Assembly: GCF_044324785.1 (NCBI RefSeq)
Contig: NZ_CP172127.1
Length of the DNA stretch: 64,000 nucleotides
From: Escherichia coli
GTDB taxonomy: Bacteria > Pseudomonadota > Gammaproteobacteria > Enterobacterales > Enterobacteriaceae
Reading direction: 5' to 3' (one strand)
The position numbers were made by a program. Of the stretch, positions 43,601-46,600 are shown piece after piece; the stretch's first letter is position 1; each line of letters opens with the position of its first letter.

Positions 43601-46600
43601 GTAGCTACCGCTTTAACGCGGGTATCCATCGCCGCGTCGTTCAGCGCCATGCCGCCCCAGCCACAAATACCGAGCAGCCCGATACGGTTGCGATCTACCT
43701 CTTTTTGCAGCCCTAAGAAATCCACCGCCGCGCTGAAATCTTCAGTGTTGATATCCGGTGAGGCGACGTTTCGCGGATAGCCGCCACTTTCCCCGGTGTA
43801 AGAAGGATCGAACGCCAGGGTAACAAACCCTCGTTCCGCCAGCGTCTGCGCATACAAGCCGCTGGATTGCTCTTTCACCGCGCCAAATGGCCCACTGACC
43901 GCAATCGCCGCCAGCTTGCGATCGCCACGGTCTTTAGGCAGGTAAAGATCGCCCACTAAGGTGATGCCATATCGGTTCGGGAACGAGACTTTACGGTGAT
44001 CGACTTTCTGGCTCTCGGCGAACGTTTTATCCCATTTATCTGTCATGGACACAGGGGCATTAGGATTGGTTGAATCAGCATAACTCATTGTCGTGACTCC
44101 ACTTAATGATGCGAAAAGCAGCATGGTCGGCATCGCGGTTTTTAGCGTTCGGGTGAAGGCTTTCATAAAAATCCCCATAAAAAACAACAGAGAGATACAG
44201 GTTTCCGACGGACAACGCTGCGGTGCTTTACTTTGATGGGGTCATTATAGTGAGCAGAATTAGTGCTGATTAGGGGGCGATTAATGCTAAGATTAATACC
44301 ATATTGTTATAAATTAATGCGGAGATTGCCGGCATGAAGGAGGGATGTTTCAATGGCGAAAAGGGAGAACTATAACGAGCTGTACCTGTTTATGCAGGTG
44401 GTGCGAGAAGGCAGCTTTACCGCAGCGGCTCAGCGGCTGGGTCTTGCTCAGTCAGGAGTCAGCCGTTCTGTTCGCGAGCTTGAAGAAAGGCTGGGCGTCC
44501 AGCTGCTAGTGCGCACCACGCGTAAACTGTCGCTGACACAAGCAGGCGAGCAGCTCTACCAGAAGACGGCATCTGGATTTGAAATGTTAGATCTTGGGCT
44601 TGCCACGCTGGCGCACTATCGAGAGACGCCCTCCGGCACTGTGCGTATCAATGCCAGCCAGCACGCGATTGATAAATGCCTGCTGCCAAAGCTGGCGGTA
44701 TTTAAACAGCGATATCCTGATATCCGGCTTGAACTGATAAATGAGAGCCGGTTCGTCGATATCATCGAGGAAAGATTCGATGCAGGTGTCCGCCTGGGGC
44801 CTGAAGTCGGCCAGGGTATGGTCGCGGTACGCATCACGCCCGATATGGAGATGGCAATTGTGGGGACTCCGGAACATTTTCGTCGCTATGGTTTTCCGCA
44901 AACCCCGGCGGATTTAAAGGCGCATCCCTGTATCGCCTATCAGTTTGCCGACGGCAGCGTATACCAGTGGGAACTCAATCAGGATGATAAAAAAATCACT
45001 CATCGCCCTGAAGGGCAATGGGCCTTATCCGACAGCTATATGGAAGCAGAAGCAGCCCGGCTGGGCCTCGGATTGGCCTATGTTCCTGTTGAACTGGTCG
45101 CGGATGATTTAGAACACGGTAAGCTTATCAGGGTGTTGCAGCGTTACAGCCTGCGAATGGAGGGATTGTTTCTCTATTACCCTCATCGCAACGTCTCCCC
45201 CGCCCTGCGGATGGTCATTGATACATTGAAAATCTGAACGTTAACAACGACCGACTCTTCACTGTGCAAAATTGTGTCAGGTAGTCCCTCTGCGTTCAAT
45301 TCCAGGGTCTGTACACCCTGCTTTGAGCGAGAAAGAGGGGACTATCCAGCAATGGAGATCACCCAAAAGAAAAAACCACCAGGCTCCCTCGACAACCTTC
45401 ATCCGGGCATTTAGCCTCAATCAACATTTTTATATCTGTCAGGTTACTTCATTATGAAAACTGATCATCATCGTTGTTTTTGTTGCAATAGTAGAATACG
45501 CGTATTTATTCCTCCATCTCTATTAATAACGGCAATAAACTGTTCACTTCACTGATATTTAAAATATACATCCTTTTCAAGCTGTTCAGCGGCGTAAGAA
45601 AAAGTATTAATTATGAATTCGACGATTTAACCATTTCTGGCTGATTGGTAATCATCTGTGATTAATGCTGGTCTATTGATTACGCCAGCACCCTCTCTAG
45701 CTTATTCACCGCCGCCACATACTTCGCCGGATTTTTATCTTTCAGCACCGCCAGATTACGTTGCTTCCAGCGAATAGCCGGAAGATGCTGAATTTCAGGA
45801 TAGCGATACCGCGACCAGTCAGGGCTGTTTTGCTTAAAACTGAGCAAGAACTCGCGATCCAGATCCGTAAGATGTGACTTCAACGCCTGCGGCAGCAAAG
45901 TCGTTACTGACAGCAGCGATTCCAGCGACGTTTCCTGCTGAGTCATCCCCGAAAATTCCTGAGCATACAGCGTCGTGATCCGCTCTGTATCCCAGTTTGG
46001 GGCCAGCAACTCGGCAATGGGGCGGGGATGGCCTGCCAGATAACAAAGAAAACCGTCAAAGATCTCCCGCATCAGTCCCGGTTTCTCCAGCATATTCAGC
46101 ACATCAAACAGATCGCGCGGGTGCTGACGATCAAGCGCTGCGCAGATTTTACCGCCATAAAGATCCGCCAGCGAGACGACACTCATGGTGGTGAAGCCAT
46201 ACTCCATTTCCACACGTTCGCACACAGGCATTTCTGCCGGAGGCAACAACAGCCCGCGCCAGACCGGGCTAACCTCGATCTTAATCTTTGCATCAGCGGT
46301 ATTCACAATGATGCGCTTTTCATCCGCTTTATTTTCCTGCCGAATCGCGGTGATCCCCGGTCTGCCGTTCAGCGATGCAGTAATCCTCTTCAAAGCGTCG
46401 TTGATAGCCGCCAGATCAGTATCGCGATCCGCAAAGCTCTTATACGCCAGATCAATATCCACCGACAGACGGGGAAAATCCTGCACAAACAAATTGATTG
46501 CCGTGCCGCCTTTCAACGCGAAACAGGACTCCTTCGCCACATGCGGCAGAGCAGCCATCAACAGCTTAACCTGCCGGGCATAACTATCACGCAGATCCAT

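Follow-up and report, generated by a model that had tools for sequence, protein, structure and literature searches.

A ykgR-ykgO relic at the edge of the Escherichia coli ecp-pao block is probably a truncated resident locus

Introduction

How did an Escherichia coli chromosome come to hold a fragment of the ykgR-ykgM-ykgO locus some 19 kb away from an intact version of that locus, and is the fragment a decayed duplicate or what is left of a locus that was there originally? The question is raised by a 64,000-nucleotide stretch of contig NZ_CP172127.1 (RefSeq assembly GCF_044324785.1), referred to here as the window, in which the 233 bases at 45458-45690 join the end of ykgR, a small membrane protein gene, to the last 11 codons of ykgO. 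This fragment, hereafter the relic, holds pieces of ykgR, ykgO and ykgL. In K-12, ykgM and ykgO (L31B and L36B; also rpmE2 and rpmJ2) are repressed by Zur and supply zinc-free ribosomal paralogues. A preliminary description of the window had read the relic as an old duplication or recombination scar. Here we present evidence that it is probably a truncated original rather than a decayed duplicate, and weigh the possible histories of the segment that separates it from the intact genes.

Results

Structure of the relic

BLASTN of 45300-45900 against the whole window yielded two ungapped, same-strand matches: part 1, 45458-45574, aligned with 26155-26271 (106/117 identical, 91%; E = 7e-42), and part 2, 45574-45690, with 26954-27070 (88/117, 75%; E = 2e-17). 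Beyond these, the best match in the 64 kb was a 15-mer (E = 0.11), so that the similarity is real and neither due to chance nor to low complexity. The two matches are collinear, are not confined to short low-complexity stretches and keep their reading frames, and the structure recurs in hundreds of genomes; a chance resemblance can be dismissed. The relic and the intact copy are in direct orientation, 19,303 bp apart from start to start, and 682 bp of the intact locus (26272-26953), comprising the Zur-box region, rpmE2 (ykgM) and the first 35 codons of rpmJ2 (ykgO), have no counterpart in the relic. The search thereby bore out the preliminary description of a second, internally deleted homologue of the locus, lacking the Zur box, rpmE2 and most of rpmJ2, that adjoins an AbiE island and flanks, together with the intact copy, a roughly 19-kb ecp-pao-LysR segment. 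Both parts had been placed to within a few bases (part 1 at 45460-45570, at about 90% identity), but the identity of about 80% given for part 2 was too high. No similarity was found upstream of 45458 or downstream of 45690, where local alignments scored 16 and 15 against shuffle means of 17.2 and 16.6.

Part 1 is one of two 117-bp direct repeats that share a 30-nt identical run: repeat A1 (26155-26271, plus strand), made up of the 3' two-thirds of intact ykgR and its 48-nt flank, and repeat A2 (45458-45574, plus strand). Within A2, ykgR' (45458-45526, plus strand; 69 nt) comprises codons 12-33 and the TAA stop. It reads KLIIIVVFVAIVEYAYLFLHLY, is identical to YkgR residues 12-33 at 20 of 22 positions (two changes), lacks a start codon and is immediately preceded by an in-frame TGA at 45455-45457. 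Since codons 1-11 are absent, the TGA is in frame and there is no upstream homology, ykgR' is a pseudogene fragment rather than a member gene of the YkgR family (Pfam PF28062); the homology is there, but not the complete 33-codon open reading frame (ORF) with a start and a ribosome-binding site. The preliminary description had instead proposed a ykgR-like ORF frameshifted by a 29-nt deletion. This did not hold: upstream, only the hexamer ATGAAA is common to both copies, alignment with ykgR codons 1-11 and the preceding sequence was no better than with shuffles, and the frame is 5'-truncated at codon 12, just after the TGA, as the PGAP annotation ("missing N-terminus") also has it.

The 48-nt ykgR 3' flank (45527-45574, plus strand) completes repeat A2 and leads into the ykgO' (rpmJ2') tail (45575-45610, plus strand), i.e., the last 11 codons, FQAVQRRKKKY, and the stop, in the frame and with the stop position of the intact gene; three of the 11 residues differ from the intact L36B C-terminus. 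These codons are all that is kept of the full-length 46-codon ORF of a type B L36 gene (ykgO/rpmJ2, PF00444), and neither is there a Zur-regulated ykgM-ykgO operon, as the Zur-box palindrome (around 26557-26575) and ykgM fall in the missing 682 bp. The remaining bases, 45611-45690 (plus strand), hold a spacer and the remains of the ykgO terminator hairpin, with the 5' arm GATTAATGCTGG at 45660-45671 and the 3' arm cut after CCAGCA (45685-45690); on the minus strand they form the 3' end of a ykgL-like frame convergent with ykgO'. The relic/island junction (45690/45691) falls in the 3' arm of this hairpin, and from there a thrW-type island carrying AbiEii/AbiEi and the genes that follow them begins.

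Block-free loci share the relic's junction

A chimeric query, consisting of the 5' part of intact ykgR joined to the relic, was searched against complete E. coli genomes and was covered over 100% of its length in three complete genomes recorded as E. coli, i.e., 6EVA, wlxctx60 and GF4-3. In all three, the gene order is betA, fdeC, intact ykgR, ykgO tail and terminator, a hypothetical gene, SDR, LysR2 (hyp-SDR-LysR2), thrW and proA, and the locus is without ykgM, ykgO, ecp, pao and the MFS-hydrolase-LysR genes. We refer to such loci as collapsed. The proAB regions of 6EVA and GF4-3 are 97.8-98.6% identical to those of ordinary E. coli. At the locus itself, the collapsed haplotype shows at most 93.5% identity to any relic-bearing genome, and the collapsed ykgR haplotype was found in no block-bearing genome. 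For the 6EVA-type SDR protein, 615 contig blocks are indexed, and in 6/6 of the contexts shown ykgR adjoins hyp-SDR-LysR2 without intervening ykgM or ykgO.

Similar findings were obtained for a second lineage, which includes assembly GCA_000208585.2 and at 94.3% identity to E. coli over gpt-proA represents a cryptic Escherichia clade; the order there, in 5/5 contexts shown, is FMN oxidoreductase, intact ykgR, ykgO tail, hyp, SDR, LysR2 and thrW. Three complete genomes and all 11 draft or metagenome contexts shown, from two lineages, accordingly join both flanks through one A copy. By sequence comparison, these loci show the 19.3 kb between the 117-bp repeats to be a unit that is present or absent as a whole.

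The collapsed E. coli loci and the cryptic clade have a common ykgR-flank/ykgO-tail junction, CTGCTT/TTCAAGC, and the relic junction is this same junction minus 9 nt between two CTTTT repeats. Collapsed loci thus share with the relic the junction, the part-2 sequence type and the right-hand neighbours. Unlike the relic, they keep the 9 nt, and their ykgR is complete, annotated as intact and contiguous with its normal left flank (fdeC or the FMN oxidoreductase). The ykgO tail begins with a 9-nt unit, CAAGCTGTT, of which GF4-3 (around 9255-9290 in record coordinates) has three tandem copies, against one elsewhere; the junction therefore appears slippage-prone, which fits the 9-nt loss in the relic.

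Divergence of the two parts

For part 2, the intact locus provides the homologue B1 (26954-27106, plus strand), i.e., its ykgO tail, terminator and ykgL 3' end. In the part-2 tree, the relic groups with collapsed E. coli and the cryptic clade (99% bootstrap), B1 falls outside this group, and E. marmotae and E. albertii branch further out; a grouping of B1 with the relic that left out the cryptic clade appeared in only 0.2% of bootstrap replicates. The corresponding distances are 6-8% from the relic to collapsed E. coli, 13% to the cryptic clade and 24% to B1, with 29% between E. coli and E. marmotae. A recent in-genome duplicate would have the intact copy of its own species as nearest relative, and by the part-2 grouping the relic does not; part 1 is uninformative here, as the E. 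coli copies all lie close together. The presence of the same junction with an intact single-copy ykgR in block-free lineages, together with the part-2 grouping, shows the relic to be the orthologue of an internally deleted single-copy ykgR locus next to thrW, and probably what is left of an older resident. The same comparisons show that the internal deletion predates the split between E. coli and the cryptic clade. Of the two terms used in the preliminary description, "recombination scar" is apt, and "duplication", if it means a decayed duplicate, probably is not.

The two parts of the relic differ in their divergence from the intact copy, with 11 mismatches per 117 in part 1 and 29 in part 2 (Fisher p = 0.003). 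One way to account for this is gene conversion, added to either history of the locus: the parts would be equally old, and part 1 would have been overwritten from the intact ykgR up to the deletion junction. Besides the mismatch counts, the discordant groupings of part 1 and part 2 speak for conversion, as does the 48-nt flank, which differs at 0-3 positions between the copies, against about 12 expected from part 2. Part of the discrepancy is, however, accounted for by the slower pace of part 1, which between E. coli and E. marmotae diverges by 14.5%, about half the 29% of part 2. Conversion also becomes unnecessary if the resident sequence gave rise to both part-1 copies and foreign origin is limited to part 2 of the intact copy. 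Furthermore, the single-copy collapsed locus, which under a gain of the block never resided with a conversion partner, has the same young flank. We consider conversion quite improbable, and attribute the contrast between 91% and 75% to the slower part 1 and to different histories of the two parts of the intact copy.

The 48-nt flank is E. coli-specific. Among A1, A2 and the collapsed E. coli locus it shows 0-3 differences in 48, and the E. coli type differs at about 10/48 positions from the cryptic clade and at about 13/48 from E. marmotae. The collapsed A sequence lies midway between the repeats, three changes from A1 and three from ancestral A2, as expected if A1 and A2 both descend from a collapsed-type A.

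Coding differences in ykgR' fall into two classes: those common to all relics are synonymous (5/5), and those specific to single lineages change an amino acid (7/7; Fisher p = 0.0013, or 0.008 when polarised with outgroups). From this contrast, selection acted on the ykgR frame of the relic until shortly before the diversification of E. coli.

Gain of the block or an old duplication

Two histories could have brought the relic and the intact locus together. In the first, the relic derives from the resident locus and the block was gained later, and this is the overall explanation that we favour, at somewhat better than even chances. As to the direction of change taken by itself, gain of the block seems slightly the better bet over loss elsewhere: it needs fewer events, each repeat can be derived from the collapsed sequence by a few changes, the decay of the relic is young, and the right part of the intact copy falls as an outgroup.

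In the second history, a stretch of about 950 bp (26155-27106) was duplicated within the genome, around an inserted ecp-pao block, in the common ancestor of E. coli and the cryptic clade. Copy 2 then decayed, losing ykgM and most of ykgO, and the collapsed loci arose by later deletions between A1 and A2, at least twice. The 30-nt identical run in the direct repeats suffices for RecA-dependent recombination, and any A1 x A2 crossover yields exactly the collapsed structure, without any coincidence of sites. The tree, in which the relic clade is joined by B1, then E. marmotae, then E. albertii, fits a duplication after the E. marmotae split, and outgroup species do carry ykgM-ykgO next to ykgR. 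The cost is a larger set of events, i.e., a duplication, an internal deletion, two or more independent collapses and a gene conversion, later than the split from the cryptic clade, that gave both repeats the E. coli-specific flank. Moreover, collapsed E. coli A has A2-type states on the left (positions 9, 27 and 33) and A1-type states on the right, the reverse of what a crossover from A1 on the left to A2 on the right would leave. A copy truncated since before the cryptic split should be rich in amino-acid changes, yet the shared changes are all synonymous. Nor is the collapsed haplotype, with its distance from every relic-bearing genome, a recent derivative. On these grounds an old duplication appears unlikely, if still worth serious consideration. 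A simple tandem duplication of 26155-45457, which would explain the left junction, was rejected, as ykgR in the collapsed loci is intact and bears relic-type markers.

Several points weigh against a later gain of the block. The part-2 tree fits an old duplication equally well, and the trees are based on 117-160 sites. A gain requires the block to have been inserted precisely at the old deletion junction, plus a 117-bp duplication, by a mechanism that is only plausible. At two synonymous sites the relic and the collapsed loci have ATC and ATA, and A1 and the outgroups have ATT, so that reversals in A1 or a mosaic A1 must be invoked. A donor lineage with a B1-type locus was not found outside E. 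coli. Finally, ykgR-ykgM-ykgO is intact in E. marmotae and E. albertii, where ecp does not follow it, and the intact operon next to ykgR is therefore ancestral for the genus.

Distribution, annotation and lack of function

The relic was found with the same junction in about 910 of 5,426 complete E. coli genomes (about 17%), and in 7/7 copies aligned. Its usual context is intact ykgR-ykgM-ykgO, ykgL, ecpRABCDE, ykgJ, yagU, paoABCD, MFS, hydrolase, LysR and then the relic, followed on the right either by hyp-SDR-LysR2, further genes, thrW and proA, or by a thrW-integrated island. In O157-type genomes the similarity extends 36 nt further, to the equivalent of 27106. Most E. coli, K-12 included, have lost the relic; in K-12 it went together with the MFS-hydrolase-LysR module, since the whole paoD-yagP stretch is gone beside prophage CP4-6.

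The 5,426 genomes held neither relic intermediates at 80-90% identity nor a diverged second 5' part of ykgO. An intact second L31/L36 locus at this position, for which the preliminary description had suggested a search, was encountered neither in those genomes nor in the protein collection, and among 157 relatives retrieved with a hybrid L36B query no L36B protein had the C-terminus of the relic. When one genome per species was searched with a codon-degenerate YkgR pattern, the sole hits were two tiny contigs of contaminating E. coli DNA in Firmicutes assemblies, which says little about other Enterobacterales.

Part of the relic is already annotated. In many E. coli genomes PGAP/RefSeq lists a pseudogene, "small membrane protein YkgR, incomplete, missing N-terminus", located between the yagP-like LysR gene and the thrW side, which corresponds to ykgR' in extent (the 69 nt of 45458-45526), strand and frame; in some RefSeq genomes the product is named only "hypothetical protein". 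The annotation ends at the ykgR stop, leaving the ykgO tail, the terminator, the ykgL end and the relation to intact and collapsed loci unannotated. Among the papers listed for ykgR we found no account of a second copy.

A fragment kept by so many genomes might be functional, either through a new 33-aa protein in a shifted frame (45454-45555, MKTDHHRCFCCNSRIRVFIPPSLLITAINCSLH), which is open in 7/7 copies despite 7-8% nucleotide divergence, or as a terminator or insulator downstream of the LysR gene. The first is contradicted by the comparison of window-type and O157-type ORFs, whose 8 nucleotide differences (5 of them non-synonymous) bring 4 amino-acid changes, with no sign of constraint. Only a weak AGG lies 11 nt upstream of the start, and both proteins are absent from about 15 billion predicted proteins. 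As to the second, the G+C-rich hairpin of an intrinsic terminator is here cut by the island, and in the longer copies its U-tract is lost, the TTTT run being replaced by CCGC. A terminator scan found no complete terminator on the plus strand of the relic; no promoter-like or terminator-like site lies in it on either strand, the single site found being upstream and on the minus strand, and Rfam 15 gave no match with E <= 1 in 45000-46000. Together with the loss of the fragment from most E. coli, this makes a function very improbable. The relic is dead and marks past events only. An antisense 21-codon ORF across part 1 was likewise discarded, its start codon having been lost in several lineages.

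The thrW island

In the window, the AbiE island has removed the right end of the relic along with hyp-SDR-LysR2, because O157-type relics run further and island-free genomes continue into hyp-SDR-LysR2-thrW. The annotated abiEii toxin gene (45680-46600, minus strand) takes its last three codons and stop from relic sequence (45680-45690). The island junction thus lies inside the abiEii ORF, and the native C-terminus of the toxin may have been replaced. A partial thrW at 54670-54715 (minus strand), i.e., the 3' 46 nt of the tRNA-Thr gene with 2 mismatches, is the attachment-site remnant closing the AbiE island; no intact tRNA was found in the window. The position of this partial copy places the AbiE island at about 45691-54715, with a second element in tandem that extends to beyond 64000.

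The intact locus and the block

The intact locus comprises, on the plus strand, ykgR (26122-26223), ykgM (26587-26850) and ykgO (ending at 26990). The 19.2-kb block between the repeats (26272-45457, plus strand), which the lineage of the window has in common with most E. coli, was assigned its gene content through the annotation of a 95-99% identical genome and the ORFs of the window: the Zur-box region, rpmE2/ykgM, rpmJ2/ykgO, a frameshifted ykgL, ecpRABCDE, ykgJ, yagU and paoABCD, followed by an MFS transporter, an alpha/beta hydrolase, LysR and a spacer of about 220 nt. The ykgL gene (27025-27250, minus strand) is frameshifted relative to the 75-aa K-12 YkgL, and PGAP marks the frameshift in the closest complete genome. 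Upstream of ykgR, the NADH:flavin oxidoreductase gene (25300-25640) has lost about 900 bp internally and survives as a remnant, equivalent to the K-12 ykgP pseudogene region; strain Br_167 and the cryptic clade keep the gene intact (380 aa).

At the right end of the block, the MFS-hydrolase-LysR module has counterparts in Citrobacter (C. portucalensis), Kluyvera sp., Enterobacter and Serratia, with protein identities of 90% or more. Its neighbours differ in each genus, a sign that the module may itself be mobile between genera. The idea of an intact second locus beside LysR in other genera was considered as well and set aside: of the many homologues listed, the two whose surroundings were compared, from Citrobacter and Kluyvera, which cluster with the E. 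coli LysR at 90% identity or more, share only about 75-95 nt after the stop and have no relic.

Other ykgM and ykgO copies

In Salmonella, Klebsiella and Enterobacter, ykgM-ykgO lies at the ylaC-maa locus, with no ykgR and with unrelated downstream sequence. Genomes with a YkgR variant assigned to E. fergusonii (10100-11960 in the records) have ykgR followed, about 46 nt past repeat A, by a phage integrase or prophage instead of ykgM-ykgO, which constitutes a third, independent loss of the operon beside ykgR.

Two further kinds of copy were met within E. coli. In Shiga-toxigenic E. coli (O157:H7 EDL933, around 8000-8263 in the record), an extra ykgM (type B L31) with 81% nucleotide identity sits beside the urease cluster and hok/gef, without ykgO or ykgR. 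This urease-island (OI-43-type) copy probably lies behind many of the surplus hits to ykgM sequence in E. coli, which number roughly 950 on chromosomes. The three extra-copy loci inspected, two of them annotated, had ykgM only, at 81%, in the urease island, and are unrelated to the relic. Secondly, in some E. coli drafts (around 9680-10150 in the record), a conjugative element with TraC/TraU/TraG, located by non-ribosomal peptide synthetase and iron-uptake genes, carries ykgM-ykgO at 79% identity, with its own Zur-box-like palindrome, a ykgM frameshift and an 11-nt deletion fusing ykgM and ykgO. This copy, borne by an integrative and conjugative element, has three states in common with the ykgO tail of the relic but no terminator, and was rejected as its source.

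Discussion

The loci compared here suggest a sequence of events that would lead to the present arrangement. An ancient deletion of about 670 bp, taking ykgM and most of ykgO, joined intact ykgR to the ykgO tail and terminator, followed by hyp-SDR-LysR2-thrW. The deleted form persists, as the sole ykgR locus, in 6EVA-type strains, a minority lineage of E. coli, and in the cryptic clade. Donor DNA from a related lineage that kept ykgM-ykgO may then have entered, anchored homologously in ykgR and its flank. We conjecture that the event was one-ended, the resident strand being retained to the end of the homology, i.e., to the old deletion junction, and that an illegitimate joining then placed the far end 117 bp upstream, at ykgR codon 12, which would duplicate A and sever the resident copy from its start codon and promoter. 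The last two steps can be read from the loci compared, which show that a thrW-integrated AbiE island subsequently replaced everything to the right of 45690, and that the relic ykgR frame finally decayed by amino-acid-changing substitutions.

If this is correct, the ancestor of E. coli and the cryptic clade lost ykgM-ykgO, and E. coli regained them in the 19.3-kb block together with ecp, ykgJ, yagU, paoABCD and MFS-hydrolase-LysR, the relic being the scar of that event; we put the chances of this full scenario at about even. Were it true, 6EVA-type E. coli and the cryptic clade would be natural "before" states without these genes at this site. The relic also shows that the ykgM-ykgO pair, the ECP pilus and the Pao aldehyde oxidoreductase, usually treated as E. 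coli core, belong to a discrete 19.3-kb, repeat-bounded unit, which a minority E. coli lineage and the cryptic clade lack at exactly this point. Strains naturally without ykgM-ykgO and ecp at this site could be used to study fitness under zinc limitation and ECP-dependent colonisation. For annotation, the RefSeq calls of an incomplete YkgR or a hypothetical protein form part of a larger, three-gene relic. The importance of these findings is modest; they concern the genome history of E. coli, and the feature is partly annotated already.

Compared with the ykgR/ykgM-ykgO locus of K-12, the relic is homologous to ykgR codons 12-33 and their flank and to the ykgO C-terminus and terminator, and differs from it in lacking a start codon, the Zur-box region, ykgM and all but 11 of the ykgO codons. 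The urease-island and conjugative-element copies show that zinc-independent L31/L36 paralogues do move on foreign DNA in E. coli; unlike the relic, they match at 79-81% over coding regions only, and have no ykgR part and no E. coli-type terminator. The block also differs from mobile islands: no mobile-element genes flank it, its repeats are gene fragments rather than att sites, and its mechanism is read from structure only. It resembles repeat-bounded indels, the products of homology-facilitated illegitimate recombination and tRNA island hotspots, such as thrW with CP4-6, in that a segment is present or absent exactly at 117-bp direct repeats. The likeness to a tRNA hotspot extends to the surroundings of the relic, which lies in a variable stretch by thrW and has a partial copy of that gene on its island side.

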